A stretch of DNA of 64,000 nucleotides from Chloroflexota bacterium (lineage in GTDB: Bacteria > Chloroflexota > Limnocylindria > Limnocylindrales > CSP1-4): positions 114,953 to 178,952 of the forward strand of contig PLMA01000042.1 in assembly GCA_003141455.1 (NCBI GenBank), read 5' to 3'. The notes under the pieces are model-generated. The model saw only the letters and a list, made by a program, of their open reading frames with translations. It was not told where the DNA came from and ran no database searches. Shown here piece after piece: positions 6,463 to 31,555 of the stretch. The stretch's first letter is position 1. Each line of letters starts with the position of its first letter. A program made the position numbers and the translations under genes.

Positions 6463-6507
6463 ATCGGACGCCTCCGCCGGAGGCGACGTCTGCCCACGCC
6501 CCTCGCG

Positions 6508-8939: not shown

Positions 8940-9054
8940 GAGCGAACCGATGGCGGACGCTTCCGCTACAACGGGCGCAACCGGGCGCCCGATGGGCCCA
9001 TCGGGCGCGACGATATACTCCCCGGGAGTATCCGCGCCGTGTTAGGATTAGCGC

Positions 9055-10164
9055 ATGAGCGACGACGCCACACCCAGGTCCACACGCCCACTGGGCGGCC
9101 TCAATCTGACCTTCCTCGCCCCGGCGGAAGGTGAGGGAATGGCCCAGGCGCGCCCTGGGACAACGGCGCCGGCCGAAGCCGGCCTCGTTGAGGAGGCGCG
9201 CGTCGTCATCGTGGGCTCGGGACCGGCGGGCCTCACCGCCGCCATCTACGCCGCTCGCGCCAATCTGCGACCGATCGTCATCGGAGGCGTCAGCGGCGGC
9301 GGTCAGCTCATGATCACGAGCGAGGTGGAGAACTACCCGGGCTTCCCCGATGGGATCGGCGGACCCGAGCTGATGGGACTCTTCCGCAAGCAGGCCGAGC
9401 GCTTCGGCGCCCGAGTCGTCGATGCGGACGTATCGCGGGTCGATCTCGGCATGCGGCCCTTCCGGCTCTGGGCCGCCGGCGTCGAATATCGGGCCCAGGC
9501 GGTGATAGTGGCCACGGGCGCGGATGCCCAGTGGCTCGGTATCGACAGCGAAACCCGGCTTCGCGGTCGCGGGGTCAGCGCTTGCGCCACCTGCGATGGG
9601 TTCTTCTTCCGCGACAAAGAGGTGGCAGTCGTCGGCGGCGGCGACAGCGCCCTGGAGGAAGCTCTCTTCCTCACCCACTTCGCCAGCAAGGTTCACCTCG
9701 TCCATCGCCGGGACGAGTTCCGCGGAAGCAAGATCATGCAGGCCCGAGCGGCCGCCCATCCCAAGATCGAGCTTCATCTGAACCGCACCGTCGCGGAGGT
9801 CCTCGGCGCGGACCATGTCGAAGGGCTGCGCCTGGGCAAGACGGACGAGCCCGGCGAGGAGACGGTGCGGCTGGATGGCGTCTTCGTGGCCATCGGGCAC
9901 AGGCCCAACGTGGCCGTATTCCGCGATTGGCTCGGGACCGACGAGAAGGGCTATCTATCGACCGGCGGCGCTACGACCGCCTCCTCGATCGACGGCGTGT
10001 TCATCGCCGGCGACGTGGACGATCACCGCTACCGCCAGGCCGTGACGGCGGCCGGCGAAGGATGTCGCGCCGCGATCGACGCGGAGCGCTGGCTCGAGGC
10101 GCAGGACGCCGGCCAATCGCACCCCGCCGAGGTCCCGAAGGAGACTGCGGCCGTCACCAAGTGA
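9055..10164 (+). CDS. trxB: Thioredoxin-disulfide reductase
   Basis: The FAD motif VVIVGSGPAGLTAAIYAAR, the redox-active CATCDG motif, the NADPH motif VAVVGGGDSALEEALFL and a C-terminal GDV motif are all present. The N-terminal 28-50 aa are probably an over-extension. The alternative ATG at 9139 has a better RBS. Confidence 0.85.
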   Translation: MSDDATPRSTRPLGGLNLTFLAPAEGEGMAQARPGTTAPAEAGLVEEARVVIVGSGPAGLTAAIYAARANLRPIVIGGVSGGGQLMITSEVENYPGFPDGIGGPELMGLFRKQAERFGARVVDADVSRVDLGMRPFRLWAAGVEYRAQAVIVATGADAQWLGIDSETRLRGRGVSACATCDGFFFRDKEVAVVGGGDSALEEALFLTHFASKVHLVHRRDEFRGSKIMQARAAAHPKIELHLNRTVAEVLGADHVEGLRLGKTDEPGEETVRLDGVFVAIGHRPNVAVFRDWLGTDEKGYLSTGGATTASSIDGVFIAGDVDDHRYRQAVTAAGEGCRAAIDAERWLEAQDAGQSHPAEVPKETAAVTK

Positions 10165-10232
10165 GCGGGCTCGCATCGCCCCGCGCGTCGTCGAGAGCTT
10201 GCTGGTAGGGTCGGCCCGTACGGGAGTCATTC

Positions 10233-17112: not shown

Positions 17113-17658
17113 ATGACCTCGATGATCCTCAACGGCAGCCAGATCAACGCCAAGCAGCGCCGCCAGCGCATCCTCCTGGAACTCGTCGCCCGCTCGGCGA
17201 TCGGCAGCCAGGAGGAGCTCGTGGAGTTGCTCCGCGAGGCCGGCTTCGAGGTGACGCAGGCGACCGTCAGCCGCGATGCCGCCGAGCTCGGACTGGTCAA
17301 GGTGCCCCGCGGCGACCGCCATGTCTATGCCACGCCCGAAACCGCGGCCACCGGCGACGTCTACGACGCCAGGCTCCGCCGGCTGCTCGAGGACATCCCG
17401 GTTCGCATCGCGCGGAGCGGCCTCAGCCTCGTCTTGCTGGCGACGCCGGGCTCGGCCGGGGCAATCGCCCAGGCCATCGACCAGTCCAGCCTGCTCGACC
17501 AGATCGGCACCCTCGCCGGCGACAACACGCTGCTAGTGCTCTTCGAGACCGAGGCCGCCCTCGAACGGTGGCTGGTCCGCTTCGAGAGCTATCAACCGGC
17601 CGGCGCCGACAAGCTGCTGCCCGCCCGACCTTTTGCCAATTCGGAGGCACCTCGATGA
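17113..17658 (+). CDS. argR: Arginine repressor
   Basis: A winged-helix N-domain (QRRQRILLELVARSAIGSQEELVELLREAGFEVTQATVSRD) and a C-terminal oligomerisation/arginine-binding domain (GDNTLLVLFETEA). The ATG lies 5 nt after the argB stop. It is embedded in the arg operon as in actinobacteria. Confidence 0.75.
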   Translation: MTSMILNGSQINAKQRRQRILLELVARSAIGSQEELVELLREAGFEVTQATVSRDAAELGLVKVPRGDRHVYATPETAATGDVYDARLRRLLEDIPVRIARSGLSLVLLATPGSAGAIAQAIDQSSLLDQIGTLAGDNTLLVLFETEAALERWLVRFESYQPAGADKLLPARPFANSEAPR

Positions 17659-18941
17659 AGAAAGTAGTGCTCGCCTACTCCGGTGGACTCGACACCTCGG
17701 TCGCCGTCGCCTGGTTGCGCGAACAGTACGACGTTGAGGTTGTCACGCTCACCGTCGACCTGGGCGGCGGCGTGCTCAAGGAAGATGTCGACCGACGGGC
17801 GATCAGTGCCGGAGCGACTCGCGCATACGTGGTCGACGGACGAGAGCACTTCGTGCGCGATTTCTGCTGGCCTCACGTCCAGGCCGGCGCCCTGTACCAG
17901 GGTGTCTACCCGCTGGCCACGGCCATGGCTCGGCCGCTGATCGCCCAGCTGCTGGTCGAGGTCGCTCACAAGGAAGGAGCCCAGGCCGTTGCCCACGGCT
18001 GCACCGGCAAGGGCAACGATCAGGTTCGCTTCGACGTCGCCACGCACGCGCTCGATCCATCTCTTGCCGTCATCGCCCCGATGCGCGTCGGCATGGGCCT
18101 GTCCCGCGAGCAGGAGATCGAGTACGCCAAGGCGCGCAACATCGAGATCACGATCTCGAAGGAGTCGATCTACTCCATCGACGTGAACCTGTGGGGCCGC
18201 TCGATCGAGGCCGGCAGCCTCGAGGATCCGTGGACTGCGCCACGCGAAGACGTCTACCGCTGGACCGTGGATCCCGACAAGGCGCCCGAGCCGGTCGAGA
18301 TCGTGATCGGCTTCGAGGGCGGCGTCCCCGTCTCGCTCGACGGGGAACGGCTCGGTCCCGTGACCCTGGTCGAGCACCTCCACGATCTCGCCGGCGCTCA
18401 CGGCGTCGGACGCGTCGACCACGTCGAAGACCGCCTGGTCGGCATCAAGAGCCGCGAGATCTACGAGGCTCCCGCCGCCACGGTCATTTATCGCGCCCAC
18501 CGCGCCCTGGAGGGCCTGACGCTCTCCAAGGACACGTTGCGCTTCAATCGGCTCGTGGCCGACGAGCTGGCCCAGCTCACCTACGACGGGCTCTGGTTCA
18601 GCGCCCTGCACCGCGACCTGCGCGCCTACGCGGCGAGCAGCCAGCGCGTGGTCAGCGGCGACGTCCGCATCCGACTCGACCACGGCACCGCAATGGTCAC
18701 CGGCCGGCGCAGCCCACTGTCTCTGTATGACAAGGCCCTGGCTACGTACGAGGCGGACGACAGCTACGACCACGCCGCGGCGGTCGGTTTCATCGAGATC
18801 TTTGGGCTGCCGCTGCGGACCGAAGCCGCCCGCCACGGAGCCGTCGGCAGGAGCCACGGCGCGGCCTGGACCTGGACCGATCCACTCCTCGAAAGCCTGC
18901 CGACGAAGGTCTTCGACGCCCCGCCGGCGGCGGTTGACTAG
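17655..18941 (+). CDS. argG: Argininosuccinate synthase
   Basis: The N-terminus is MKKVVLAYSGGLDTS (PP-loop). The ATG at 17655 follows a GGAGG RBS and overlaps the argR stop (ATGA). 428 aa. Confidence 0.9.
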   Translation: MKKVVLAYSGGLDTSVAVAWLREQYDVEVVTLTVDLGGGVLKEDVDRRAISAGATRAYVVDGREHFVRDFCWPHVQAGALYQGVYPLATAMARPLIAQLLVEVAHKEGAQAVAHGCTGKGNDQVRFDVATHALDPSLAVIAPMRVGMGLSREQEIEYAKARNIEITISKESIYSIDVNLWGRSIEAGSLEDPWTAPREDVYRWTVDPDKAPEPVEIVIGFEGGVPVSLDGERLGPVTLVEHLHDLAGAHGVGRVDHVEDRLVGIKSREIYEAPAATVIYRAHRALEGLTLSKDTLRFNRLVADELAQLTYDGLWFSALHRDLRAYAASSQRVVSGDVRIRLDHGTAMVTGRRSPLSLYDKALATYEADDSYDHAAAVGFIEIFGLPLRTEAARHGAVGRSHGAAWTWTDPLLESLPTKVFDAPPAAVD

Positions 18942-18969
18942 GAGGCCCGCCCTGGGCGCAGACGAACAG

Positions 18970-20385
18970 ATGGCCAGCTCGATCGAACCGGCAAAGGCCC
19001 GTGGGCCGGCCGGTCGGCCCACGCCCGCGGCAGCCCGGGGCGGCGCCGGGAGCTCGACGGATGCCGAGCGCAAGCTGCGCGAGCTGGAGTTCCTGCACGA
19101 GTTCGCCAAGCTGCTGACCACGGCCCGAAACTGGGACGAACTGATGCGGACCATCGTCGACCGGACGACAGACGCCCTGAACGTTGAGGTCTGCTCCGTA
19201 TACATCATGGAGCGCGACGAGGCCCGCCTGCGCCTGGCCGCCACCAACGGCCTGGACCGCGACCAGATCGGACTCGTCGCCATGGCCCTTGGTGAAGGCC
19301 TGACCGGTCGAGCGGCCCAACTGGGCCAGCCCGTGGCTTCGCCGGACGTTCGAGTGGACCCGCTCTTCAAGTGGGTACCGGGCTTCGACCAGTCGCAGTT
19401 CACGTCGATGCTCTCGGTGCCTATGCCCTGGAACGACACGATCGTCGGCGTGGTCAACGTCCAGGCCATCGAGACCCGCACGTTCTCGCCCGAGGAGGTC
19501 GAATTCCTCGTGACCATCGGGGCGCTGCTCGGCGGCGTCGTGGAGAAGGGTCGCCTGCAGGCCGAGGCCCAGGAGCAGGTGGAGACCCTCACCGCGCTCG
19601 ACGGCGCCCGCGCCGAGTTGCTCGCGGTCGTGACTCACGAGTTGCGCACGCCGCTGGCCGTGGTGCGGGCATATCTGGATCTGATGGCGGATGCTGCCGT
19701 CGACGCGACCGGAGGCGGCCCCCGCGACGACCAGGGCGCGATCGCCGGCCCGCGCCCCAGCCCGGCGCTCGTCGAGGAATGGCGGGCCCAGGCTACCGCC
19801 CAGGTGACGCGGCTGGATCGGCTCGTCGACTCCATCCTGGCCTCGGTTCGGGGCGAGGGCCTGGCCGCCGGGCTGGCTCGCGATGCCTTCGACGTCGCCA
19901 CGGCCGTGAACGATACGATCGGCGAGATGACGCCGCTGCTGCGCGGACACCCTCTCCGGCGGAGCGGAACGTCGGAGGCCCTGATGGGGATCGGCGACGA
20001 GGGCCGCTTCCGCCAGGTCCTGGAGCACCTCCTGGAGAACGAGGTCAAGTACTCGCCCGAGGGCGGTTCCGTGAGCGTGGGGGCCTTGCGCAAGGACTCT
20101 GAGGTTCTGGTGTATGTCACCGATGACGGCCCCGGCATCCCGGAGCCGGAATGGGAGTCCGTCTTCGATGCCTACGTTCGCACGGCCAACCGACCTCGCG
20201 GCTCCGGGATCGGCCTGTACGCCGCCAGGCGGCTCATGGGAGCCATGGGCGGTCGCGTGTGGCTCGAGTCGAACGGGTTCGGCGGAACCCGGTTCATGGT
20301 GGCCGTGCCCGAGATGCGCCAAACTGACGAAGGCACAGCCGGTCCGGAGGCAGGTGTAATGTCCGAGGCAGGGCCGGAGGCGTAG
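18970..20385 (+). CDS. GAF-domain sensor histidine kinase
   Basis: An N-terminal GAF-like domain is followed by an H-box (VTHELRTPLAVV) and an HATPase_c domain (N, G1 and G2 boxes: LENEVKYSPEGG, DDGPGIP, GSGIGLYAA). The ORF upstream of 18970 is low-complexity and is probably not translated. Confidence 0.75.
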   Translation: MASSIEPAKARGPAGRPTPAAARGGAGSSTDAERKLRELEFLHEFAKLLTTARNWDELMRTIVDRTTDALNVEVCSVYIMERDEARLRLAATNGLDRDQIGLVAMALGEGLTGRAAQLGQPVASPDVRVDPLFKWVPGFDQSQFTSMLSVPMPWNDTIVGVVNVQAIETRTFSPEEVEFLVTIGALLGGVVEKGRLQAEAQEQVETLTALDGARAELLAVVTHELRTPLAVVRAYLDLMADAAVDATGGGPRDDQGAIAGPRPSPALVEEWRAQATAQVTRLDRLVDSILASVRGEGLAAGLARDAFDVATAVNDTIGEMTPLLRGHPLRRSGTSEALMGIGDEGRFRQVLEHLLENEVKYSPEGGSVSVGALRKDSEVLVYVTDDGPGIPEPEWESVFDAYVRTANRPRGSGIGLYAARRLMGAMGGRVWLESNGFGGTRFMVAVPEMRQTDEGTAGPEAGVMSEAGPEA

Positions 20386-20406
20386 CGCCACAATGGAGAC
20401 ATCGAG

Positions 20407-21120
20407 GTGAACGGAATGGGTCCGAATGGGGAGACCAGCCTGCTGGTACTCGTCGTCGACGATGAGCCCGCCATGGTCGGCGCCGTCTCGGCTCTCGTCG
20501 GACGCGCCGGCCACCGCGTTGTCACCGCATATGACGGCAACACGGCCCTGCGCCGTTTCTCGGAGGAGCGGCCGGACCTCGTTCTCCTCGACCTGGCCAT
20601 GCCGGGCCTGGACGGAGTCGAGGTCTGCCGGGCGATCCGGCGCATGTCGCAGACGCCGATCATCGTCCTGACGGGCGAGTCGGACGAGCGAGCCAAGGTC
20701 GAGGCGCTCGACATGGGGGCGGACGACTACGTGGTCAAGCCCTTCGGCAAGCAGGAGCTCCTGGCCCGTATCCGAGCCGTCATGCGGCGTCGAGGCAACG
20801 ACGCGGAGCCGCGAGGCGCCGGGGAGCTGCGCTGGGGATCGATCGTCCTGGACCGGGGTCGCCACACCGCCTCCGTCGCGGACGCCCAGCTCGTCCTCAC
20901 ACGCACCGAGTACAGCCTGCTCGCGTCACTGGTTGCCGCCGCTGGCCATGTGGTTTCGCACAGCGCGTTGCTGAACGCCGGCTGGCCCGGCGAGCCCAAC
21001 CCGGATCCGCAGTGGCTCAAACCCCACCTGGCCCGCCTGCGCTTCAAGCTCGGCGAAGCTGGCGCGCCCGTGCCGGCCTCGGTCCGCGGCGTGGGCTACC
21101 GCCTGGAAGAAGCCGGCTAG
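20407..21120 (+). CDS. OmpR/PhoB-family DNA-binding response regulator
   Basis: A receiver domain (LVVDDEPAM...DLVLLDLAMPGLDG...DDYVVKPF) plus a C-terminal winged-helix domain (VGYRLE). It is 22 nt downstream of the kinase. Confidence 0.85.
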   Translation: MNGMGPNGETSLLVLVVDDEPAMVGAVSALVGRAGHRVVTAYDGNTALRRFSEERPDLVLLDLAMPGLDGVEVCRAIRRMSQTPIIVLTGESDERAKVEALDMGADDYVVKPFGKQELLARIRAVMRRRGNDAEPRGAGELRWGSIVLDRGRHTASVADAQLVLTRTEYSLLASLVAAAGHVVSHSALLNAGWPGEPNPDPQWLKPHLARLRFKLGEAGAPVPASVRGVGYRLEEAG

Positions 21121-21238
21121 CAGAGGGGCGGAAGGGATCGGCTGGCCCGACGCCTCCGCGCTGTTGGTCCCGCGCACCCAGGGACCGATTCTCGCGAGGT
21201 AGTGAACGAAACGAGGGCCATCCGTCGTCATATCATGC

Positions 21239-21790
21239 ATGGGTAGGGCGGGAGCCGAGGGAGTCATGAGGGTGGAACCGATACAGCTATCGGTCGTGGG
21301 GGACGACCCTTTCGACATCTTTGCCGCGCTGACGCCTCATCATCTCGACAGGGCCTACAGGCTTGCCTGGGCGATACTCGGCAACGATGAGGAGGCCCAG
21401 GACGCCACCCAGGACGCGCTGACCGTCGCGTGGCGACAACGCCGCAGCCTTCGCGACCCGGGCAAGCTGGAGGCCTGGCTGGGGCGGATTCTGGTGAACA
21501 CATGTAGGGACCACCTTAGAAGGCGGGCGCGAAGCCGCAGCCAACCGCTGGAGTTGGGCCCCCTGCCCTCCGTCTCCGACGGCAGCCGGGCTGCCGAAAG
21601 CCGCGACCAGCTTGGCCGAGCCCTCGGAGCCCTCAACCCCGATCAAAGGATCGTGGTCGTCCTGAGGTTCTGGGCCGATCTGACTGTCGACGACATTGCG
21701 GACCGGCTGGGCGTACCGGCCGGCACCGTGAAATCGCGCCTTCATCATTCCTTACGCGCGCTCCGCTCGACTTTGGAGGAACCTCGATGA
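21239..21790 (+). CDS. ECF-family RNA polymerase sigma factor (sigma-70 regions 2 and 4)
   Basis: Region 2 is AYRLAWAILGNDEEAQDATQDALTVAW. Region 4 is VVLRFWADLTVDDIADRLGVPAGTVKSRLHHSLRALR. Its stop overlaps the start of the downstream membrane protein (ATGA). Confidence 0.85.
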   Translation: MGRAGAEGVMRVEPIQLSVVGDDPFDIFAALTPHHLDRAYRLAWAILGNDEEAQDATQDALTVAWRQRRSLRDPGKLEAWLGRILVNTCRDHLRRRARSRSQPLELGPLPSVSDGSRAAESRDQLGRALGALNPDQRIVVVLRFWADLTVDDIADRLGVPAGTVKSRLHHSLRALRSTLEEPR

Positions 21791-24528
21791 CTGACGACGA
21801 GCTGGGCCAGCGTCTTCAGGAGGAGCTTCACTCGCGGATCGACCCGCCCGTGGCTGCTCCCGACGCCATACACGAACACGTCGTGAATCTTCGTTCTATG
21901 CAAGAGGTCCGACGGGGCGAGCCCGGCTACCGGGCGCACTCGCTCAGAAACCTCTTCGCGGTCGCGGCGGGTTTCGCGATCGTCGCTCTACTGACAACCG
22001 GACTGCTCTCCTGGCAGTCGCTCAAGCCACGAACGGGCACGGTGAGCGCAGTCGGCGGGATCGAGATGTTCGGGCGGTTGGACTCGAAGGTCGCCTGGGC
22101 TGAGTCCGGCTCAGACCTGTATGTCACTCGCGACGGCGGGGTTTCCTGGTCACGAGGGACTGTACCGGGCGGGCGTTCGCTCGGCCAACTCGCAGCCTCC
22201 AATTACGCGACAGATGCGCCGGCGCTCAGCACGCCTACACCCGTGGGTCCCGATGCAGGGCCAGCGTCCAGCGTTGAGCCCGTCGGAGCAAGCTCGATTT
22301 TTGGCTTCTTCCCAGACCATCTGTATCCGACCTTTGTCGACGCCGACCACGGCTGGCTCCTCTCGTGGACGGTGTCCAACGCAACGAGCCTCCAGACGGC
22401 GGCGTGGACTCTCACTGTGCATAGGACGAAGGATGGCGGCCAGACGTGGGAGTCGACCCAGCTGCCCGGTACCTACAAGGGCTACGGAATGACCCAATTC
22501 GTCGACTCCCAGCATGGATGGGTAGTGGTCTACCGGATGGACTACGCCATGTCGGCCGGCGGGGGGAGCGGCCCTGAGCCCTCGCCGATGCCCTCTCCGA
22601 CGATGCCGTCCGATACCACGACGGTCCTGGCAACGAGTGACGGCGGAGTCACCTGGTCGCCGGCCTCGACCCTCGGGGCGCTGGCCCTCGTGCAGTTCAC
22701 GAGCGTATCCGAGGCCTGGGGCACCGAGAGCGGCTACAGCAGTGGAGCGGCCGCCGTGGTCCACTCAACCGATGGCGGCCACACTTGGTCCCGATCGGTT
22801 CTCCCCTTGCCGCAATGCAGCACACTCCCGAACGCGGCCTCCATACCGGCGCGAGCAAACGGGTTGCTCGAGCTACGGCTGGGGTGCGACCAGACCGGCA
22901 ACGTTACTGGGGGCTCCCCATATGCGCTGCTGACCTTCGTGAGCGTCGATGACGGCCAAACCTGGACCCTCGAGTCGACGAGCCAGGTTGACGGCGCCCT
23001 CTTCAACGTCAGCATGGCCTCGGTCTTGAACCTCCCCGCAGGGCAGCCCATCGTCGCCTACAGCCCCTACGGGACATACACGGGCACAGGCCCAATGCCG
23101 CTGAAGGCGACCTTCGACGGCGGGAAGACCTGGGCCACATACGCCACGGCCGGCCTACCATCCACCGTCACAGTGGCCGAGTGGGCCTCTCCCGACGACG
23201 TCTGGGTCATGGTCGGACCTGCTGGCTCCCTGGCGGGAACGCTGGCGGGCCGGTTGTACTCGACCGCAGACGCCGGCAAGACATGGACGTCCTTGCTGGG
23301 TGCGCCGGCCTGGCCTGCCTCACCGGCGCCGGCGATCACCCCGGAAATCATCTACGTGACCAACCCTCCGGTCCCGATTAGCTCCGAGGCGCCAACCCGG
23401 ACCGGACCATCGATCGCCTCCTACGGTCGGGTCGACGCCAAAGCCGGCTGGGTCGTAGTGGCCGAGTCGACGGGCAGCTACGACGTGAGACTTACGCAGG
23501 ACGGCGGGGTGACCTGGTCCGAGCCGCGAGCCATGCCGAGTGGCGGAGACGTCCAGTTCGTCGACGCGGACCACGGCTGGATCCTGACATCGGATACGGA
23601 GGGCCAAGGTGCCGCCGGCGGCTACTCGGCTGTGGTGTTGTGGACAGCAGACGGCGGACGCACCTGGGACAAGCCCGCGGGGATCGACCTGGGCGCTCTG
23701 CAGGGCAATCCGCAGAAGACCTTTGCTTCTACCTCGATCCACTTCCGAGATACTCTCCACGGCGAGTTGTATGCCGCCTTCGGGTCTAGCTCCGACGGCC
23801 CGACCTCAGCACCAACCGCATCGCCGGCCACGGCAGCGGTGTGTGAGCAGTTCTCAACCGCCGACGCGGGGGCAACATGGTCGAAGCCGAGAAGCGCGCC
23901 CTGCATGACGCAAGTGAGCTTCGAGGACGCCTCGCTCGGGTATGGCAGCGATTTGCTGCTGACTCCAGTCATACACGTCTCCGTAGACGGCGGCCAGAGT
24001 TGGATCGACGCCAATCTGCCGCTTCCCTCGGGGGTGAGCGCAGGGAGCTCCAACGGGGCAATCGTCAAGCTCCTGGAACATCGTGCGGACGGTACCTTGC
24101 GAGCGATGGTCGAGTGGAGCAACGGTCCGGCCGTCACGACGATCGTCGTCAGCGCCGATGGCGGGAGGACCTGGACGTCGGCCGGAACCGCTCAAGGCTT
24201 CTCCGCCTACGGTTATGCCGTCGCATCGCTCGGCGAGGGCAACTGGCTCGCCCTGGGGCAGACGCTCACGCCCGGCGCCACGCCGTTCGCTCTCGACGCT
24301 CGCGTCACCGACGATGGCGGCCTTACCTGGAAAGCGATCACAGCCCAGGGGCTGCCGGCTTACCCGACTACACCATTCTTCGTGAGCGCGACGGACGGGT
24401 GGGTGGCAGCCGTCGACCCCGTCTGCGACGCCTCCTCCACCGGCAGGCAAAGCTGCCCCCTGGCAACTTGGTCTATATACGGCACCAAGGATGGCGGCGT
24501 GACCTGGAAGGCAATCCTCACTCCGTAA
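21787..24528 (+). CDS. Membrane-anchored BNR/Ycf48-like repeat (beta-propeller) protein; putative anti-sigma factor cognate to the upstream ECF sigma
   Basis: 913 aa. A ~55-aa cytoplasmic N-terminus is followed by one TM helix (LFAVAAGFAIVALLTTGLL) and then about 14 repeats of the S-x-D-G-G-x-T-W motif (TRDGGVSW, TKDGGQTW, TSDGGVTW, STDGGHTW ... TKDGGVTW). It is translationally coupled to the sigma gene. Confidence 0.8.
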   Translation: MTDDELGQRLQEELHSRIDPPVAAPDAIHEHVVNLRSMQEVRRGEPGYRAHSLRNLFAVAAGFAIVALLTTGLLSWQSLKPRTGTVSAVGGIEMFGRLDSKVAWAESGSDLYVTRDGGVSWSRGTVPGGRSLGQLAASNYATDAPALSTPTPVGPDAGPASSVEPVGASSIFGFFPDHLYPTFVDADHGWLLSWTVSNATSLQTAAWTLTVHRTKDGGQTWESTQLPGTYKGYGMTQFVDSQHGWVVVYRMDYAMSAGGGSGPEPSPMPSPTMPSDTTTVLATSDGGVTWSPASTLGALALVQFTSVSEAWGTESGYSSGAAAVVHSTDGGHTWSRSVLPLPQCSTLPNAASIPARANGLLELRLGCDQTGNVTGGSPYALLTFVSVDDGQTWTLESTSQVDGALFNVSMASVLNLPAGQPIVAYSPYGTYTGTGPMPLKATFDGGKTWATYATAGLPSTVTVAEWASPDDVWVMVGPAGSLAGTLAGRLYSTADAGKTWTSLLGAPAWPASPAPAITPEIIYVTNPPVPISSEAPTRTGPSIASYGRVDAKAGWVVVAESTGSYDVRLTQDGGVTWSEPRAMPSGGDVQFVDADHGWILTSDTEGQGAAGGYSAVVLWTADGGRTWDKPAGIDLGALQGNPQKTFASTSIHFRDTLHGELYAAFGSSSDGPTSAPTASPATAAVCEQFSTADAGATWSKPRSAPCMTQVSFEDASLGYGSDLLLTPVIHVSVDGGQSWIDANLPLPSGVSAGSSNGAIVKLLEHRADGTLRAMVEWSNGPAVTTIVVSADGGRTWTSAGTAQGFSAYGYAVASLGEGNWLALGQTLTPGATPFALDARVTDDGGLTWKAITAQGLPAYPTTPFFVSATDGWVAAVDPVCDASSTGRQSCPLATWSIYGTKDGGVTWKAILTP

Positions 24529-24777
24529 TGGGGTTCCGGCGGGTCCACGTATCCAAAGAGCGCCGCCGTCAGCCACAAATCGCCCGGCGGCGCCGCACGA
24601 GAACGACCGGCCGCCCGAGCCGCACCAGGCCTCACCCAAGAATCAACGAACCCGCGCTACCTGCCGAAAGGTGCGCGGGTCGATGTTCTGTGAGCCGTCT
24701 TGTCTGGCGGCGCCGGGGTCCTCAGCCGGCCAAGGAGGCGAGAAACGACCGCGACTGCTCGAGGTCGAGAGGTTCTA

Positions 24778-24858
24778 CTCCTCCGCCTTGGCGCGAGACG
24801 GTGCTACGAACCAACCTACGACCAGGACTCCGAAACTTAGGAAGGCGGCTGCGATCAC
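24778..24858 (-). CDS. Candidate 27-aa hydrophobic micropeptide (V/M-IAAAFLSFGVLVVGWFVAPSRAKAEE)
   Basis: A GTG start is preceded by a perfect AAGGAG 6 nt upstream. A single TM-like segment is predicted. It lies 70 nt downstream of the second 5x11-bp repeat array, on the amt strand. Confidence 0.3.
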
Positions 24859-24927
24859 TCTTGGCTCCTTCGGCTGAACCGCGGGACCCTCGTCCCATTC
24901 ACTGATCGGGAGTTTATGGCCCGTGCC

Positions 24928-25002
24928 GGGCGAAATCAGTAGCGCCCGAGTAGACCAGTGGTGACGCTCCGGTGACGCGCGGGTTGCGGTTCGGGACGGC
25001 CG
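24928..25002 (-). promoter_or_regulatory. Array of five phased 11-bp direct-repeat units (GTnnC + 6-nt spacer, read on the + strand). A paralog of the element upstream of amt. Candidate OmpR/PhoB-family (GlnR-like) operator.
   Basis: The + strand reads gaaatcaGTAGCgcccgaGTAGAccagtgGTGACgctccgGTGACgcgcggGTTGCggttcgggacggc. This is 75% identical over 69 ungapped nt to 26487-26555. Confidence 0.5.
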
Positions 25003-25168
25003 ATCAGTCGACGAGAGTTTCCGACGAGGGTCCCCAACGCAGCCCCGTTCAAGAGGGTGCGGCGACGACAACCCAGCGGGTCCGTGCTGGGACTATGGCG
25101 ACCCGGGTGCGAAGGGGAGGCACCGAGGTCGCCATCGCGGCGGGAGGCGGCAGTCTGGCTGGTCCAGG

Positions 25169-26410
25169 CTAGGCCTGGTAGACGACCACCTCGCCGTGCT
25201 GGGAGGAGTCGAGGCCGGCTTCCTCTTCGGACTCCTCCACGCGGAGGCCCACGAAGAAGTCCACGACCTTGAGAATCGCGAAGGTGGCGACGCCGCTGTA
25301 GATCCACGTGGCGGCCACCGCGATGAGCTGCTTGCCGAGTTGGCTGGCATTGCCGTCGATGAGGCCCGAGGCGCCGTTGACCGCGGCGACCGCGAAGACG
25401 CCGGTCAGAATCGCGCCGAGTGTTCCACCGACGCCGTGGACCGCCCAGACGTCGAGGGCGTCGTCGACCTTGAGCCTCTCGCGCAGCAGGATCGCGCCGT
25501 AGCAGACCGACCCGGCCGCGAAGCCGATGATGATGGCCGCGCTCGCGTCCACGTATCCGGAGGCCGGCGTAATCGCCACCAGCCCGGCCACGCCTCCTGC
25601 CACCGCCCCGACGACGCTCGGCGTGCCCTTGTGCAGCCAGCTGACCGTGACCCAGGTGAGGGCGGCCATGCCGGCGGCCGTGTTCGTGACGACGAACGCA
25701 TTGGCCGCCAGGCCGTTCGCCGCGAGGGCAGAGCCGCCATTGAAGCCGAACCAGCCGAACCAGAGCAACCCGGCGCCGATGACCGTCAGGCGGACGTCGT
25801 GCGGCTCGAAGCGCTCGGATTCTCGCTTGACCCGCGGGCCCAGCACGAGCGCCGCGATCAGCGCCGCGACACCGGAGCTGATGTGGACGACGGTGCCACC
25901 TGCGAAGTCGATGGCGCCCAGCTTGTTGAGCCAGCCGCCCTGACCCCAAACCCAGTGGGCGATCGGCGAGTAGACGAGGAGGGTCCACAGGAGCGAGAAG
26001 AGGACGAAAGCCTTGAAGCGCTTCCGCTCGGCGAAGGCGCCAGTAATCAGAGCCGGCGTGATGACCGCGAACATCATCTGGAAGGCCATGTAGGCGCTGG
26101 CCGGGATGGTCGGCGCATATGAGATCGGGTCCTTGCCGATGCCGTGCAGGCCGATGAAGTCGAGGCCGCCGATGATGCCCCATCCGTTCACGTCCGTCCC
26201 GAAAGCAAGCGTGAAGCCGATCAGGACCCAGGTGACGCTGACCAGGGCCAGGATGAAGACGCTGTGCATGATCGTGCTGAGCACGTTCTTGCGGCGGACC
26301 AGGCCGCCGTAGAAGAGGGCGAGACCGGGCGTCATCAACATGACGAGCGCCGTCGAGGTCAGTACCCAGGCGGTGTCGCCACTGTCGATCGGATGTCCCG
26401 TCAAGATCAC
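25169..26410 (-). CDS. amt: Ammonium transporter (Amt/MEP family)
   Basis: 413 aa with 11 TM segments and the Amt signature motifs DFAGGTVVHISSG...GAVAGLVAITPASGYV...HGVGGTLGAILTGVFA. GTG start with an AAAGGGGA RBS. There is no glnK downstream. Confidence 0.9.
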   Translation of the reverse strand: MILTGHPIDSGDTAWVLTSTALVMLMTPGLALFYGGLVRRKNVLSTIMHSVFILALVSVTWVLIGFTLAFGTDVNGWGIIGGLDFIGLHGIGKDPISYAPTIPASAYMAFQMMFAVITPALITGAFAERKRFKAFVLFSLLWTLLVYSPIAHWVWGQGGWLNKLGAIDFAGGTVVHISSGVAALIAALVLGPRVKRESERFEPHDVRLTVIGAGLLWFGWFGFNGGSALAANGLAANAFVVTNTAAGMAALTWVTVSWLHKGTPSVVGAVAGGVAGLVAITPASGYVDASAAIIIGFAAGSVCYGAILLRERLKVDDALDVWAVHGVGGTLGAILTGVFAVAAVNGASGLIDGNASQLGKQLIAVAATWIYSGVATFAILKVVDFFVGLRVEESEEEAGLDSSQHGEVVVYQA

Positions 26411-26482
26411 TCGCGTCCCCTTTCGAATCCGTGGAATCCCGGCGCAGGTGGCGCCCGACGACCGAAGGGTAAGGATGCGGTT

Positions 26483-26556
26483 CGGGGAAATCAGTAGCCG
26501 TCGGGTGACCCCTGGGTCGCGCTCAGGTGGCGCCCGGGTTGCCGTTCAGGACGGCT
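26483..26556 (-). promoter_or_regulatory. Array of five phased 11-bp direct-repeat units located 77-145 nt upstream of the amt start codon. Candidate OmpR/PhoB-family (GlnR-like nitrogen regulator) operator.
   Basis: The + strand reads gaaatcaGTAGCcgtcggGTGACccctggGTCGCgctcagGTGGCgcccggGTTGCcgttcaggacggc. The five GTnnC pentamers are spaced exactly 11 bp apart. Confidence 0.5.
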
Positions 26557-26601
26557 GGCCGCGGTGCGGCCCGGAACGTAGCGGGGCGCAACGAACGCGG
26601 C

Positions 26602-26883
26602 CTAGCTTGCGGCGGCCTCCAGCGGAGTGGTCCGATGCGGCAGGTCGAGGCACGCAATCCGGCAGCCGCGCGCGTCGTGCCCGGGAGCTCCCAGGAAATG
26701 GCGCCAGGCTGCGTCGGGGCCGAGCATGCCGCCATCGGCAAGCGATTCGCGTGACGTGAGGCGGCAGCCGCAGGCGGCGCAGGTCAGGACGAACGAGTCC
26801 TCCCGGCGCATGGCACGCGGGTAAGGCAACTCCCCCACCGGCTCGAACTCATGCAGCTTCATCGGTCCCAGTCCAGGGCGCAC
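26602..26883 (-). CDS. Hypothetical small Cys-containing protein (93 aa), downstream of the Kelch-repeat gene
   Basis: Open reading frame with a GTG/ATG start. Contains CxxCxC and CxxxC clusters. I recognise no family. Coding status is uncertain. Confidence 0.25.
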   Translation of the reverse strand: MRPGLGPMKLHEFEPVGELPYPRAMRREDSFVLTCAACGCRLTSRESLADGGMLGPDAAWRHFLGAPGHDARGCRIACLDLPHRTTPLEAAAS

Positions 26884-26978
26884 ACGCGGGCCATGTTGAG
26901 GCTACGGCGCGACGCGCCCCAAGACTATGCCGTGCCGGTGCCGCTTGGGTGGCAGATGGGGACGCGGCCGGGCGGCGA

Positions 26979-29432
26979 CTACTGGCTCGGGTGTGAGGTC
27001 AGCCCGGTCGTCGGGCTCGGCGTGGCGGCCGGCGTCGCGGCGGGATCGTACAGCTCGGCGGATGCCATCGCCGAGAAGAAAGAAGTGTCTCCGACCGCCA
27101 CGGGGAAACTGCCTCCGGCGATCAGGACGCGGCCGTCGGACAAGAGCGTCGCGGTGTAGTTCGATCTGAGCTGTAGGAATGACCCGGTCGGGCTTGAAGT
27201 GCCGGTCGCGGGGTCGTAGACGTCAAACGTCGCGGATACCCCGGCTTGCCAGGTGGCTGCCGCAACCAGAACTCGACCGTCGGACAAGAGCGTCGCCGTG
27301 TGGCTGTAGAAGCCGAGCGAAGCGGTCAAGCTCGGGATGAACTTCCCGCCGCGCGGGTCATACAGCTCCCCTACTCCGTTGCCGAGCATCAGGACGCGGC
27401 CGTCGGAGAGCCGAGTCGCCGTGGACGTGGAGGAATCTCGAGCCTGTGCCATCGATCCCGTCGCGCTGAACGTGCCGCTTGCGGGGTCGTACAACTCGGC
27501 AGAAGAGAGCGCCGAGGCGAGTGGGCTCGGTCTCGTCGCGCCGAAGCCGCCCGCCATCAGGACGCGGCCGTCCGACAGCAGCATCGCGGTATGGAAGGAG
27601 CGAGCCTCCTGCATCGACCCCGTGGCGGTGAACGTGCCGCTGCCGGGGTCGTAGAGCTCCGCTCCGGCAACGACAAGCACCGAGTTCTGACTCGGTTGGC
27701 CTCCGGCGACCAGGACTCGGCCGTCGGGCAGGAGACTGGCCGTGAAGCCCACCCGAGGGTAGTTCATCGACCCGGTTTCGCTGAACGAGCCCGTCGCGGG
27801 GTCGTACAGCTCGGCCGAGGCAATGGCAGCTCCAGTGCCGTCATAGCCGCCCGTGACCAGGACCCGGCCGTCGGGCAGCAGCGTGGCCAGAGGGTAGGTG
27901 CGTGGGTGGGCCATCGAACCGGTCGAGCTGAATTTGCCCGTACCCGGATCGTAGAGCTCTGCTGTGGCAACAGGAGTCGCGTTCTCGTCCACGCCTCCCA
28001 CGACGAGGACGCGGCCGTCCGCCAACCGGACTGCGGCATGTTGGGCGCGGGGCTGAACCATCGGCCCCGTCGCGCCGAACGCTCCCCGCGTCGGCGGGTT
28101 GGACTGAGGCTTGGCGCTCGGGTCGTACAGCTGGGCGAACGCGATTATCTGCGGCATCGCCGTAGGGGCCCGGCCCCCCGCGATGAGGACGCGACCATCT
28201 GGGAGCAGGGTGGCGGTGTGGTCGGCGATGGGCATGGCGAGCGACCCGGCTGGGCTGAATCGGCCAGTCGCGGGGTCGTACGACTCCGCTGTTGCTGGGT
28301 ACACGTCCGCCGCCGGGTCGGGAACGAAGCCGCCCGCGACGAGGACGCGGCCGTCAGGGAGCAGGGTGGCGGTGTGGTCGTGGCGGCCGTAGGCCATGGA
28401 GCCTGTCGAACTGAACTTACCCGTCGCCGGGTCGTACAGCTCCGCGGAGGTCAGGAGTGACGGCTGGTCGCCTGCCGGCGACATGCCGCCGGCGATCAGA
28501 ACGCGGCCGTCAGGGAGCAGGGTGGCGGTGTCGTAGATCCGAGCCTCCGGCATCGACCCCGTTGGACTGAACTTGCCGGTCCCGGGATCGTATAGCTCCG
28601 CCGACGAGGTGCCACCCTGGGGGCTGAATCCACCTTCGATGAGCACCCGGCCATCCTTGAGCAGGACCGCATGGTGCAGGAAGCGCGGATGCGACATCGA
28701 GCCCGTGAGGCTGAACGTGCCGGTTCTCGGGTCGTAGAGCTCCGCCGAAGATGGGAGCGTCGCGGCACTGGCGCTGCCGCTCGCCCCGCCGGCTATCAGC
28801 ACTCGGCCGTCAGGGAGCAGGGTGGCGGTGTCGTTCCAACGCGAGTTCGCCATCGAACCGGTCGCGTTGAACGTGCCGCTCTTCGGGTCGTAGAGCTCGG
28901 CCGTGCTGTCGTCGCCACCCGTCGTGGCATCGCCGCCACCGGTGACCAGGACGTGACCGTCGGGCAGGAGAGTAGCTGTGGGGGACGTGCGAGCGTGGAT
29001 CATGGAGCCGGTGGCGCTGAACGTGCCGGTCGTCGGGTCGTACAGCTCTGCAGAGGCGAGTGCGCCGTCAGGGCCCCGCCCGCCGAGGATCAGCACCCGG
29101 CCGTCTGGAAGCAACACCGCAGCTTGATCCCCGCGGGCCTGCAGCAGCGAGCCGGTCTGGCTGAAGGCCCCAATCGACGGTTTCGTCGAGGCGGCCGGAG
29201 CCGGCCGGTTCGCGACGACTGTCAGCAGCGCCGCGGCCAAGACCAACGTTGCTGCCAATCCCACCAGCGCCGGGAGGGCGCGGCCGGTCGGCCGATGCCA
29301 GGTGAACGCACGCCGCGCCGCGGGGCGCGTGCGGTCGCGGAGCACCGCCTCGCGAAGGCGGTCGGGCGCGCCAACCACGGGAGCCGCTCCGAGGAGGTCT
29401 CCGAGACGAAGCTCGATATCGCGGTCGTTCAT
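26979..29432 (-). CDS. Membrane-anchored Kelch-repeat (beta-propeller) protein; putative anti-sigma factor cognate to the adjacent ECF sigma
   Basis: About 818 aa counted from MNDRDIELRLGDLL. A ~50-aa cytoplasmic N-terminus is followed by one TM helix (ALPALVGLAATLVLAAALLTVV) and then about 16 Kelch-like repeats (LLPDGRVLIAGG...AELYDPATGTFSATGSM). The ATG overlaps the sigma stop (ATGA). Confidence 0.8.
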   Translation of the reverse strand: MNDRDIELRLGDLLGAAPVVGAPDRLREAVLRDRTRPAARRAFTWHRPTGRALPALVGLAATLVLAAALLTVVANRPAPAASTKPSIGAFSQTGSLLQARGDQAAVLLPDGRVLILGGRGPDGALASAELYDPTTGTFSATGSMIHARTSPTATLLPDGHVLVTGGGDATTGGDDSTAELYDPKSGTFNATGSMANSRWNDTATLLPDGRVLIAGGASGSASAATLPSSAELYDPRTGTFSLTGSMSHPRFLHHAVLLKDGRVLIEGGFSPQGGTSSAELYDPGTGKFSPTGSMPEARIYDTATLLPDGRVLIAGGMSPAGDQPSLLTSAELYDPATGKFSSTGSMAYGRHDHTATLLPDGRVLVAGGFVPDPAADVYPATAESYDPATGRFSPAGSLAMPIADHTATLLPDGRVLIAGGRAPTAMPQIIAFAQLYDPSAKPQSNPPTRGAFGATGPMVQPRAQHAAVRLADGRVLVVGGVDENATPVATAELYDPGTGKFSSTGSMAHPRTYPLATLLPDGRVLVTGGYDGTGAAIASAELYDPATGSFSETGSMNYPRVGFTASLLPDGRVLVAGGQPSQNSVLVVAGAELYDPGSGTFTATGSMQEARSFHTAMLLSDGRVLMAGGFGATRPSPLASALSSAELYDPASGTFSATGSMAQARDSSTSTATRLSDGRVLMLGNGVGELYDPRGGKFIPSLTASLGFYSHTATLLSDGRVLVAAATWQAGVSATFDVYDPATGTSSPTGSFLQLRSNYTATLLSDGRVLIAGGSFPVAVGDTSFFSAMASAELYDPAATPAATPSPTTGLTSHPSQ

Positions 29433-30016
29433 CGCAGCACCTCCCTGGCGGCACGGTCCATGTGGCTTCGCAGGGCGGCGATCGCTGAGTGCAATCTCGA
29501 TTTCACAGTGCCCGCCGGGCAGTCCAACTGTGTGGCTATCTCCTCGATCGGCAGGTCCCGCCAAAAGCGCAGGACGACCACTGCCCGCTGTTCGGGGGTC
29601 AGGACAACCAGGGCTCGTCCCAATTCATCCTGGGCCAGCATGTCGCGGAACGGGTCGCGGTCCGCGACTTCCTCGCCCTCCTCGATCTCTACGAACCGGA
29701 TGAGTTTTCGACGGCGCATTCGGTCCAGGCACGTGTTGACGAGGACTCGATCCAGCCAGCCATCGAAAGCGGCCTTGTCCTTGAGAGTCCCGCGGGCTCG
29801 CCAGGCGCGGGCCATCGCCTCCTGGGTCGCATCCTCGGCCTCAGCGGCATTGCCCAGCAGGTACCCGGCCAGCGAGTAGCAGCGGTCGAGCCCACGTCCG
29901 CTCAAACGCTCGAACGCGGCGTCGATCGTGTCGGGTAGCTCACTGGGAACCACTAGCCCTCCCTGGAACGTTGGCGCTCTCTCCGGTACCTGCAAGTCGG
30001 CACGGTCCTTCGTCAC
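29429..30016 (-). CDS. ECF-family RNA polymerase sigma factor; paralog of the 21239..21790 gene
   Basis: Region 2 is CYSLAGYLLGNAAEAEDATQEAMARAW. Region 4 is VVLRFWRDLPIEEIATQLDCPAGTVKSRLHSAIAALR, nearly identical to region 4 of the other sigma. Confidence 0.85.
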   Translation of the reverse strand: MTKDRADLQVPERAPTFQGGLVVPSELPDTIDAAFERLSGRGLDRCYSLAGYLLGNAAEAEDATQEAMARAWRARGTLKDKAAFDGWLDRVLVNTCLDRMRRRKLIRFVEIEEGEEVADRDPFRDMLAQDELGRALVVLTPEQRAVVVLRFWRDLPIEEIATQLDCPAGTVKSRLHSAIAALRSHMDRAAREVLR

Positions 30017-30139
30017 CAGGGACGGACGGGCGCCTCGAAACGTTCATTCCCGGGCGCTCGCAGTGCGCCCACCGCCACCGGCAGTGCCCCACAGGAGACG
30101 CCGAAAGCCGCCGGGTCGGCCGGGTCCAGGCCGAGGCCA

Positions 30140-31555
30140 CTAGAGCCCCAGGCGTTCCCTGGCGGCCGCGAGGGCCGTGGCGACGCGACGAGGGGCGGTC
30201 CCGCCTACGACGTCGCAACTGGCCAATGCGCCTTCCAGCGCGGCCGCGGCGCGCAGCTCCCCGGGGAGGGCGGAGTCACCCATGATCGTGAGCGCAACCG
30301 AATCGTCGGACGTGGCCAGGGCCGCCGCGATCGTGGCGTCGTCCAGCGCCTCGAGCCCGATTCCGGCCCTCTCCGCCTCGGCGACGAGCGTCCCCACCAC
30401 GTGGTGGGCGGCGCGAAATGCCACTCCCCGGCGGACGAGGGCGTCGGCGACGGCCGTGGCCGTGGTGTATCCCTCTCCCGCCGCCGCCCGCATACGCTCC
30501 CGGTCCACGGTCAGCGTCTCGACCATCCCGGCCATCACCGCGAGCGAGGCCTCGAGCGTGGCCGCCGCCTCGAAGAGTGGCGGCTTGTCTTCTTGCAGGT
30601 CCCGCTGATACCCGAGCGGCAGCCCCTTGAGCAGCGCCAGAAGACCCGTCAGCGAGCCGATGACCCGCGCTGCCCGGCCTCGCACCAGCTCGGCGGGATC
30701 GGGGTTCTTCTTGTTCGGCATCATCGACGAGCCGGTGGAGAACGAATCGGCCGCCCGCACGAACCCGAACCGCGGATTCGACCACCACGTGATCTCCTCC
30801 GCCAATCGGCTGAGATGGACCATGCAGAGCGCGAAGGCGGCGAGCGCTTCGGCCACGAAATCGCGGTCGCCGACGGCGTCGAGCGAATTGGCCGTCACAC
30901 CGTCGAAGCCGAGCTCCGCGGCCGTCGCTTCGCGATCGAGCGGGTAGCCCGCGCCCGCCAGCGCGCCCGAGCCCAGCGGTGAGACGTTCGCCCGCCGCCG
31001 GCAGTCGGCCAGCCGACCCCTGTCGCGCTCGAGCATCTCGACGTAGGCCAGCAGATGGTGAGCGAACAGGATCGGCTGGGCGGGCTGGATGTGAGTGGAG
31101 CCGGGCATGATCGCATCGCCGTCACGTTCGGCGAGCCGGACGAGCGCCCGCTCCATCTCCAGGACTGCCTCGTCCAGGCCGTCGATCGTTCGCCGCAGCC
31201 ACAGCCGCAGGTCCGTGGCGACCTGGTCGTTGCGCGAGCGGCCGGTGTGCAGCCGACCGGCGATCGGTCCAACCCGGTCCCTCAAGGCCTCTTCGAGGTT
31301 CATGTGGACGTCCTCGAGGGCCGGATCCCAGGCCAGGCTGCCCTCCTCGACTTCGGACCGCAGCCCTTCGAGCCCATGCACGAGCGTCTCGACCTCGTCG
31401 GGGGCCAACAGGCCCGCCCGGCCAAGGCCGTGCACATGGGCGATCGAGCCGGCGATGTCGTCGAGCGCAAGGGCGCGATCGACATCGATCGACCGGGTGA
31501 ACTCGGCCACCCGATCGTCAGTCGTGCCTTCGAATCGACCGCCCCAGAGCCGCAT
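30140..31555 (-). CDS. argH: Argininosuccinate lyase
   Basis: 471 aa from MRLWGGRFEG. Fumarate-lyase signature GSSMMPNKKNP. A GGAGGAGG RBS sits upstream of the ATG at 31555. The longer ORF reaching 31693 is an over-extension. Confidence 0.9.
   Translation of the reverse strand: MRLWGGRFEGTTDDRVAEFTRSIDVDRALALDDIAGSIAHVHGLGRAGLLAPDEVETLVHGLEGLRSEVEEGSLAWDPALEDVHMNLEEALRDRVGPIAGRLHTGRSRNDQVATDLRLWLRRTIDGLDEAVLEMERALVRLAERDGDAIMPGSTHIQPAQPILFAHHLLAYVEMLERDRGRLADCRRRANVSPLGSGALAGAGYPLDREATAAELGFDGVTANSLDAVGDRDFVAEALAAFALCMVHLSRLAEEITWWSNPRFGFVRAADSFSTGSSMMPNKKNPDPAELVRGRAARVIGSLTGLLALLKGLPLGYQRDLQEDKPPLFEAAATLEASLAVMAGMVETLTVDRERMRAAAGEGYTTATAVADALVRRGVAFRAAHHVVGTLVAEAERAGIGLEALDDATIAAALATSDDSVALTIMGDSALPGELRAAAALEGALASCDVVGGTAPRRVATALAAARERLGL

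Follow-up and report, generated by a model that had tools for sequence, protein, structure and literature searches.

Two extracytoplasmic function (ECF) sigma factor genes, each followed by a gene for a large membrane protein with a β-propeller ectodomain, lie in a 64,000-nucleotide stretch of contig PLMA01000042.1 from a Chloroflexota bacterium (assembly GCA_003141455.1); the whole stretch is called the window, and positions refer to it unless another contig is named. Each sigma gene and its partner form a cassette. Cassette 1 pairs sigma 1 with a BNR-repeat protein (partner 1), and cassette 2 pairs sigma 2 with a Kelch-repeat protein (partner 2). The reading favored here, at a probability of roughly 0.6, is that each cassette is an autoregulated ECF sigma/membrane anti-sigma module with a double-propeller sensor at the cell surface. 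Comparison with related contigs (numbered L001 to L169) indicates that the cassettes are paralogs with different propeller types, that they are independent of each other, and that they are prone to gain and loss.

Architecture of the two cassettes

By domain content, both sigma proteins are members of the ECF (group 4) branch of the sigma-70 family, with sigma-2 and sigma-4 domains only. Both open reading frames (ORFs) carry Pfam Sigma70_r2 plus r4/r4_2, NCBIfam TIGR02937 scores them at 85.3 and 84.9 bits (cutoff 42.9), and their PDB matches are SigE, SigL, SigW, and SigK. The Pfam domains, together with an ATGA overlap at both sigma/partner junctions, confirm the original prediction, made from the DNA letters alone, that two ECF sigma genes are each coupled to a large partner. 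Such ATGA coupling is typical of stoichiometric sigma/anti-sigma pairs. The true sigma starts are likely ATG 21266 and GTG 29953 because of the promoter positions, the Shine-Dalgarno sequences (GAGGGAG before 21266, GGGAGGG before 29953), and the lengths of orthologs, which are 174 amino acids (aa) for sigma 1 and likewise 174 aa for the L169 ortholog of sigma 2. The longer ORF starts overlap the promoters.

Alignment marks the two sigmas as paralogous, not near-identical: identity is 50% over 153 aa and, counted on the same alignment, ~60% in region 4, which had been described as near-identical. In a neighbor-joining tree of the sigmas, those paired with Kelch partners form the sister clade of those paired with BNR partners. 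Duplication of the module with a swapped ectodomain, as first proposed, is a reasonable reading because the sigma clades are sisters and a single partner architecture carries different propellers.

Each partner has one hydrophobic segment and none elsewhere, and AlphaFold2 models built on family alignments agree with the anticipated layout of a short N-terminus and one transmembrane helix. The partner 1 model (mean predicted local distance difference test, pLDDT, 75) has two short N-terminal helices, one long helix, and then β structure; the partner 2 model (mean pLDDT 80) has the same plan. Partner 1 has 913 aa. Partner 2 has 817 aa when started at the ATG of MNDRD, the 861-aa ORF from a TTG being an over-extension.

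Partner 1 matches Pfam BNR, BNR_2, PSII_BNR, and Sortilin-Vps10. It contains exactly 14 S/TxDxGxxW Asp boxes, in keeping with the ~14 BNR repeats predicted, and in most blades an F-x-D-x-x-x-G-W type motif alternates with the Asp box. Three cysteine pairs are conserved in the BNR ectodomain. Partner 2 is, by its repeats and its model, a Kelch-repeat β-propeller protein: Pfam Kelch_1/4/6 match (Kelch_4 at 225 bits, Kelch_6 at 214 bits), and the model resembles Kelch domains at TM-scores of 0.76-0.81. Its 14 DG[RH]VL motifs give 14 blades instead of the ~16 repeats first counted, and these blades are very regular, with 54% mean pairwise core identity. Partner 2 contains no cysteine.

Table 1. 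Coordinates of the cassette features and of neighboring genes and elements in the window
Feature	Position	Strand	Remarks
Predicted ECF-type autoregulatory promoter, cassette 1	21202-21233	+	GTGAACGAA-N15-CGTCGTCATAT; kept upstream of sigma in BNR-type loci
ECF sigma factor 1	21266-21790	+	174 aa from ATG 21266; longest ORF from 21239; Pfam Sigma70_r2 and r4_2
Partner 1, putative anti-sigma/sensor	21787-24528	+	913 aa; single-pass; two BNR/Ycf48-like seven-bladed propellers
Partner 1 N-terminal segment, aa 1-44	21787-21918	+	Helices 3-18 and 26-36; alignment and AlphaFold2 model; presumed cytoplasmic
Partner 1 transmembrane helix, aa ~52-78	21940-22020	+	Sole Kyte-Doolittle peak >=1.6; model helix 56-78
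Partner 1 propeller 1, aa ~94-503	22066-23295	+	Asp boxes 1-7
Partner 1 Pro-rich disordered linker, aa ~504-541	23296-23409	+	pLDDT <50 at residues 511-538
Partner 1 propeller 2, aa ~542-911	23410-24519	+	Asp boxes 8-14
Predicted ECF-type autoregulatory promoter, cassette 2	30016-30047	-	ATGAACGTTTCG-N10-CCGTCCCTGG; kept in L005, L006, L169
ECF sigma factor 2	29429-29953	-	174 aa from GTG 29953; longest ORF from 30016; Pfam Sigma70_r2 and r4/r4_2
Partner 2, putative anti-sigma/sensor	26979-29432	-	817 aa; single-pass; 14 Kelch blades (2 x 7)
Partner 2 N-terminal segment, aa 1-42	29307-29432	-	Helices 2-16 and 23-42 (low pLDDT); presumed cytoplasmic
Partner 2 transmembrane helix, aa ~50-78	29199-29285	-	
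Partner 2 Kelch propellers, aa ~90-796	27045-29165	-	Blades 1-7 and 8-14; junction near aa 421-450
amt	25169-26410	-	Between the two sigma/partner pairs
72-nt element, two copies	24929-25000 and 26484-26555	-	Read on the minus strand
27-aa small ORF	24775-24858	-	
86-aa Cys-rich ORF	26602-26862	-	Between the Kelch gene and amt
OmpR-type response regulator	20407-21120		Directly upstream of sigma 1, along with the GAF histidine kinase
GAF histidine kinase, longest ORF	18727-20385	+	552 aa
argG	17568-18941		3' end overlapped by the longest histidine kinase ORF

Conservation of the pairing and variation at the locus

Adjacency of the sigma and propeller genes with translational coupling is strictly conserved. 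The sigma stop lies 4-11 bp inside the partner start in 19 of 19 pairs extracted from related genomes, and two further contigs, L168 and L169, share this layout, so that the survey of sigma-propeller synteny suggested in the original prediction comes out in its favor. Other neighbors differ among the family loci, and the surroundings of the BNR pairs in L001, L002, and L004 are unrelated. The family comprises ~42 full-length BNR homologs, all from metagenomes, with the Kelch version as a narrow offshoot. In the BNR family, mean pairwise identity is 55% over the N-terminal 44 aa versus 45-50% over the propellers.

A hidden Markov model (HMM) search with a 44-residue N-terminal profile finds 38 representative clusters among 1.84 billion proteins, nearly all with the match in N-terminal position. 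All ten new matches that were scanned carry one or two BNR propellers. Distant pairs, in which an ECF gene overlaps a gene for a short N-terminus, a transmembrane helix, and a BNR propeller, occur in contigs of other Chloroflexota, Dormibacterota, Binatota, and Acidobacteriota. Homology between their N-termini and those of the Limnocylindria was considered and set aside (hhalign probability 1%), and the likeness is one of architecture only.

The argC-J-B-R-G ... argH-MFS-ligase-ABC backbone around the cassettes is the same in related contigs, and the contents between argG and argH vary. The window holds a BNR cassette, a Kelch cassette with 14 blades, and one amt gene. L168 has the BNR cassette (partner 90% identical), no Kelch cassette, and two amt genes. 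The BNR cassette is absent from L005-L007, which carry a 14-blade Kelch cassette (partner 74-75% identical) with one amt (L005) or two (L006/L007), and from L169, in which the Kelch partner has 7 blades (463 aa) and amt is present twice. Judged from these alignments, the cassettes are independent insertions/deletions of ~3.3-3.5 kb, because positions 21119-24648 of the window are missing from L005 and positions 26821-30145 are missing from L168.

Variation extends to the ectodomains. The L169 Kelch partner (positions 6001-7392 of that contig) has a single propeller and is 75% identical to partner 2 over the common part, and the BNR family also has one- and two-propeller forms (P0209-P0219 versus P0225/P0232). 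Whole propellers have evidently been gained or lost. A separate observation comes from L008, in which a 640-aa ORF (8662-10584) runs from an ECF sigma through an internal MNDIDRE... segment and a transmembrane helix into an NHL propeller. This ORF was rejected as Rosetta-stone evidence, being a singleton and maybe a fused gene call. Nearby on L008 (553-2192), a PD40/WD40-like gene, maybe truncated at its 5' end, is preceded at a distance of ~340 bp by another ECF sigma gene.

Predicted promoters

The predicted promoters have an AAC-containing -35 and a CGT-containing -10, as ECF autoregulation expects. Across loci the BNR-type motif reads TGAACGAA-N11-15-CGTCGTC(ATAT). The Kelch-type motif reads TGAACGTTT-N-CGTCC, and both types are conserved upstream of sigma genes only. 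The two cassettes therefore differ in promoter details as well as in propeller type. In a strict-pattern scan of ~270 kb, the 14 family loci have one motif site apiece, always immediately before the sigma gene, and no further site turns up. A looser TGAAC-N14-18-CGTC scan of the window returns the two sites upstream of the sigmas and five others, judged to lie inside coding regions.

Proposed mechanism and the anti-sigma question

In the module reading, topology would be N-in/C-out, with the N-terminus in the cytoplasm and the propellers at the cell surface. The N-terminal helices would hold sigma inactive at the membrane. An extracellular ligand, probably a polymer (a glycan or a protein, for example), would bind the propellers and trigger release of sigma, by analogy via regulated proteolysis. 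The free sigma would then transcribe its own operon and a further regulon. Speaking for this reading are the gene coupling in all loci compared, the type-specific promoter ahead of sigma, the single membrane span with propellers behind it, the stronger conservation of the N-terminus, the exchange of propeller types between sister sigma clades, and the BT4663 sensor as a structural analog of the Kelch model.

Putative anti-sigma factors of ECF sigmas have been delimited operationally by a gene in the +1 position relative to the ECF gene, one or more transmembrane helices, and a conserved cytoplasmic region (Casas-Pastor et al., 2021; PMC7826278). Single-pass proteins at +1 are the usual putative anti-sigma factors, and most of them have no Pfam match (PMC7826278). 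By sequence, both partners show all of these features and are putative anti-sigma factors in this operational sense.

Several results weigh against the module reading. The first 91 aa of either partner match no Pfam family at E-values up to 10, and the partner N-termini match neither an NCBIfam anti-sigma model nor any PDB sequence. The N-terminus also has roughly half the ~80-90 aa of a class I anti-sigma domain. The class I features sought in both partners come down to two predicted helices before the membrane; the N-termini have no cysteine, and the HxxxCxxC motif of the zinc-binding subclass is absent. Of the domains named for the Pfam searches of the partners in the original prediction, BNR_2 and Kelch were matched and the RskA/anti-sigma N-terminal domain was not. 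Homology between the BNR and Kelch N-termini was likewise tried and rejected, in that an HMM built from BNR sequences only gives Kelch at E = 0.13, the top non-family match among 14,586 candidates and not significant. Further points on the same side are the ambiguous charge bias flanking the BNR transmembrane segment, a search for a regulon with the promoter motifs that returned autoregulatory sites only (in the window and in ~270 kb of family loci), and the GH74 xyloglucanases, which are the best Foldseek matches of the BNR model (12-13% identity, TM-scores 0.26-0.33).

Other features of the N-termini can be set beside these. Partners 1 and 2 have an N-terminal MND..[IL]E.[RK]L...AP[DE].L motif in common, a weak similarity. 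Strong Kelch scores with the 44-residue profile are circular, as the profile itself included Kelch sequences. The net charge of partner 2 is +4 in the 15 residues before the transmembrane segment and +1 in the 15 after it.

Sensor, surface product, or enzyme

Some of these results favor an alternative that is clearly less probable: the propeller proteins might be sigma-dependent, membrane-anchored surface products, co-transcribed with a sigma that is controlled otherwise and serving in binding or adhesion or as GH74-like or lyase-like enzymes. The only promoter copies found drive their own operon, so the partner is the one demonstrable output, and its N-terminus has no match among anti-sigma domain models. 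A simple surface product sits less easily with a 44-aa N-terminus that is the most conserved part of the protein, with a similar layout across two unrelated ectodomains, or with ATGA coupling in all 19 pairs.

Structural searches bear on the enzymatic form of this alternative from both directions. For the BNR model, GH74 xyloglucanases and sortilin Vps10 domains share the top of the Foldseek list (identity 9-15%, TM-scores 0.14-0.33); polysaccharide lyases and sialidases follow further down, the sialidases at 8-12% identity. In GH74 enzymes two tightly packed seven-bladed propellers form the substrate cleft, with two catalytic Asp residues. The GH74 matches top this list, yet their identity and TM-scores are low, and a GH74-type interdomain cleft seems unlikely in the BNR model because the propellers are loosely tethered by the disordered linker and one-propeller relatives exist. 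No GH33 FRIP-type motif ([FYW]R[IVLT]P) is present, and the BNR propellers are seven-bladed, whereas GH33 sialidases combine that motif with a catalytic Arg triad in a six-bladed Asp-box propeller. The best per-domain matches are Ycf48 and generic propellers. Partner 1 does not qualify as Ycf48/HCF136, a factor of phototrophs recognized by a full-length match to a seven-bladed model of ~300 aa: the fold is similar, PSII_BNR scores 46 bits over residues 277-339 only, and the NCBIfam Ycf48 score is 33 bits (cutoff 326).

A radical copper oxidase (galactose oxidase/GlxA) was considered for the Kelch protein and rejected. The protein cannot form the Cys-Tyr cofactor because it has no cysteine, and its NCBIfam GlxA score is 156 bits (cutoff 800). 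Structural matches of the Kelch model are peptide-binding Kelch domains and, at full length, the BT4663 double-propeller sensor. A glycosidase signature, which had been named in advance as a sign of an enzyme, was not found: no FRIP motif, no cysteine in the Kelch protein, and best per-domain matches to Ycf48 and generic propellers. Glycoside-hydrolase modules are the sensors of some RsgI anti-sigma factors, so an enzymatic ectodomain would not exclude sensing.

Possible transcriptional control of the sigmas

It is quite improbable that the sigmas are controlled mainly by transcription, for instance through the neighboring response regulator, on the model of SigE/CseBC (ECF39) in Streptomyces, with the partner in an accessory envelope role. 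SigE-family model TIGR02983 is the best NCBIfam match of both sigmas, but its scores of 135.5 and 125.4 bits fall below the curated cutoff of 141.55. Some ECF39 members are indeed regulated by two-component systems (PMC7826278), and both the window and L168 have one immediately before sigma 1; it is not beside the sigma 1 homolog in L001, L002, or L004. The conserved upstream element is, moreover, an ECF-type promoter and not the 11-nt repeat array described below.

amt, the repeat operators, and other neighbors

Pfam annotation gives the order argG, GAF histidine kinase, OmpR-type response regulator, ECF sigma 1, and 913-aa BNR protein, followed on the minus strand by amt, the 817-aa Kelch protein, ECF sigma 2, and argH. 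G+C content of the window is ~68%, and it is most closely related to metagenome-assembled members of Candidatus Limnocylindrales, an order of Chloroflexota. As first described, amt lies between convergent pairs, repeat arrays are present, and a GAF kinase/regulator pair lies upstream of sigma 1. The functional meaning attached to this arrangement does not stand, since relatives differ. On the loci compared, the flanking of amt by two pairs is an accident of this genome without functional meaning, and the kinase/regulator neighbor likewise has none, because relatives carry one cassette or the other and BNR pairs elsewhere have unrelated neighbors.

The repeat-array operators proposed earlier are real, although they precede amt and a small peptide gene and not the sigma genes. 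They consist of a 72-nt element, present twice, that comprises approximately six 11-nt direct repeats of G(T/C)CAC-N6, ends in GCTACTGATT, and has no Rfam match. In the window, L005, L006, L168, and L169, the element stands before each amt gene and before the small peptide gene, and never before a sigma gene. An 11-nt repeat periodicity is typical of response-regulator arrays of the OmpR/PhoP/GlnR family, and the adjacent regulator and GAF kinase are obvious candidate regulators of the element. The element belongs to a separate nitrogen-related unit, as the kinase and regulator probably do. The layout is corrected accordingly: amt, its operator, and the two-component-system neighborhood are not to be folded into the sigma system.

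That the cassettes, amt, the repeat operators, and the GAF kinase/regulator form one nitrogen- or envelope-sensing circuit is the least probable alternative, for although all of these elements are adjacent in the window and the Kelch cassette adjoins amt in L005-L007 and L169 too, the same arg/amt backbone occurs with only BNR (L168) or only Kelch (L005-L007, L169), the cassettes act as clean 3.3-3.5 kb insertions/deletions, neither amt nor this two-component system occurs near the BNR pairs of L001, L002, and L004, the operator array is confined to sites upstream of amt copies and of the small peptide gene, and a motif scan of the window finds no sigma-type promoter upstream of amt.

Several neighboring features deserve description in their own right. 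The 27-aa ORF (VIAAAFLSFGVLVVGWFVAPSRAKAEE) is hydrophobic, has a strong Shine-Dalgarno sequence (GAAGGAGCC), and is preceded by an amt operator array of its own; a GC-rich hairpin and then a T-run come after it. L005, L006/L007 (where it is called as 39 aa), and L168 keep the ORF too, and it probably encodes a small membrane peptide that is regulated together with amt. An ORF of 85-86 aa lies at the position matching the 86-aa Cys-rich ORF (TCAACGC and GCRIAC motifs) in L005, L007, L168, and L169; the ORF has no Pfam or NCBIfam match. Tandem amt paralogs are found in L168 (9085-11783), L006, and L169, where the window has one gene. The window amt itself aligns with one L168 copy (~90%), and the DNA in front of it aligns with what precedes the other copy. 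Because gene and upstream region align to different L168 copies, the alignments suggest that the window lost one amt by recombination between tandem copies.

The histidine kinase probably starts further downstream than 18727, because its orthologs are 421-496 aa long. Third-position G+C is 0.76-0.82 in the cassette genes (21239-24528, 26979-30016) versus 0.84-0.91 in argG, the kinase, the regulator, amt, and argH; this slightly lower value, a small difference, would fit the variable presence of the cassettes at the locus. Target-site duplications or terminal repeats are not visible at the cassette edges, an Rfam scan of 20000-31000 finds no RNA family, and scans for terminators and sigma-70 promoters stay at background level.

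A possible new anti-sigma class

A broader proposal is tentative and on balance doubtful: the partners may constitute an unrecognized anti-sigma class in which a ~40-residue, two-helix sigma-binding segment is joined to one or two surface propellers acting as receptors for extracellular polymers, the cassette being gained, lost, and re-equipped (with BNR, Kelch, or possibly NHL propellers) as a unit. If so, soil Chloroflexota and, in parallel, Dormibacterota, Acidobacteriota, and Binatota would have a plug-in sensing repertoire comparable to clostridial RsgI/SigI. Were the N-terminal segment a true anti-sigma element, it would be a minimal sigma-binding module missed by present annotation pipelines, and β-propellers, single or tandem, would be sensor domains of ECF signaling. 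The 7-blade and 14-blade variants and the presence or absence of cassettes at one locus offer natural comparisons for experiments. The family sits in poorly studied soil and peat Chloroflexota and gives a concrete way into their surface sensing.

Comparison with known systems

Canonical pairs of ECF sigmas and single-pass anti-sigma factors (RpoE-RseA, SigW-RsiW, and SigD-RsdA and SigK-RskA of M. tuberculosis) resemble the cassettes in the two-domain sigma, the coupled +1 partner with a short N-terminus, presumed cytoplasmic in the cassettes, ahead of a single transmembrane helix, and the autoregulated AAC/CGT-type promoter. The cassettes differ in their ~44-aa two-helix segment, which has no zinc motif and no anti-sigma model match, and in an ectodomain that is a 700-830-aa propeller pair and not a small domain.

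Clostridium thermocellum, which like the Chloroflexota host is not known to have an outer membrane, provides a second parallel in SigI/RsgI. That system also consists of paralogous sigma/anti-sigma modules, and in RsgI the cytoplasmic part that binds sigma is constant, whereas the extracellular modules joined to it, carbohydrate-active or carbohydrate-binding, are interchangeable and sense insoluble polymers (PMC10328401, PMC6582324). In contrast, the sigma of the cassettes is ECF (group 4), the sensors are propellers and not CBM, PA14, or GH modules, and neither the RsgI N-terminal domain nor the SEAL/autoproteolytic domain is detected in the partners.

Propellers are tied to signaling elsewhere. 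BT4663, a Bacteroides hybrid two-component sensor (PDB 4A2L/4A2M), uses tandem seven-bladed propellers as its extracytoplasmic sensor and matches the Kelch model over ~770 columns, but it has histidine kinase/response regulator output and belongs to another propeller family, with 12% identity and a TM-score of ~0.3. GH74 enzymes share with partner 1 two tandem seven-bladed Asp-box propellers. Neither GH74 nor Ycf48/HCF136 is membrane-anchored behind a sigma gene, however, and the PSII_BNR match to partner 1 covers ~60 residues. PknD-type Ser/Thr kinases likewise tie an NHL propeller ectodomain to a signaling protein, and kinase-NHL fusions are observed; PknD signals by phosphorylation. ECF57 sigmas also combine propeller-type repeats with a bacterial signaling protein, although their WD40-like repeats are fused to sigma itself and a cytoplasmic extension is implied (PMC8999054).

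A literature search, which did not extend to the group-by-group descriptions of the ECF classification, found no account of an ECF anti-sigma factor with a propeller ectodomain or of this Limnocylindria family. The label "undescribed" in the original prediction agrees with that result for the propeller version and is too broad for the general kind: an ECF sigma with a single-pass +1 partner is standard (PMC7826278), and the propeller version is an unusual, conserved variant of it.

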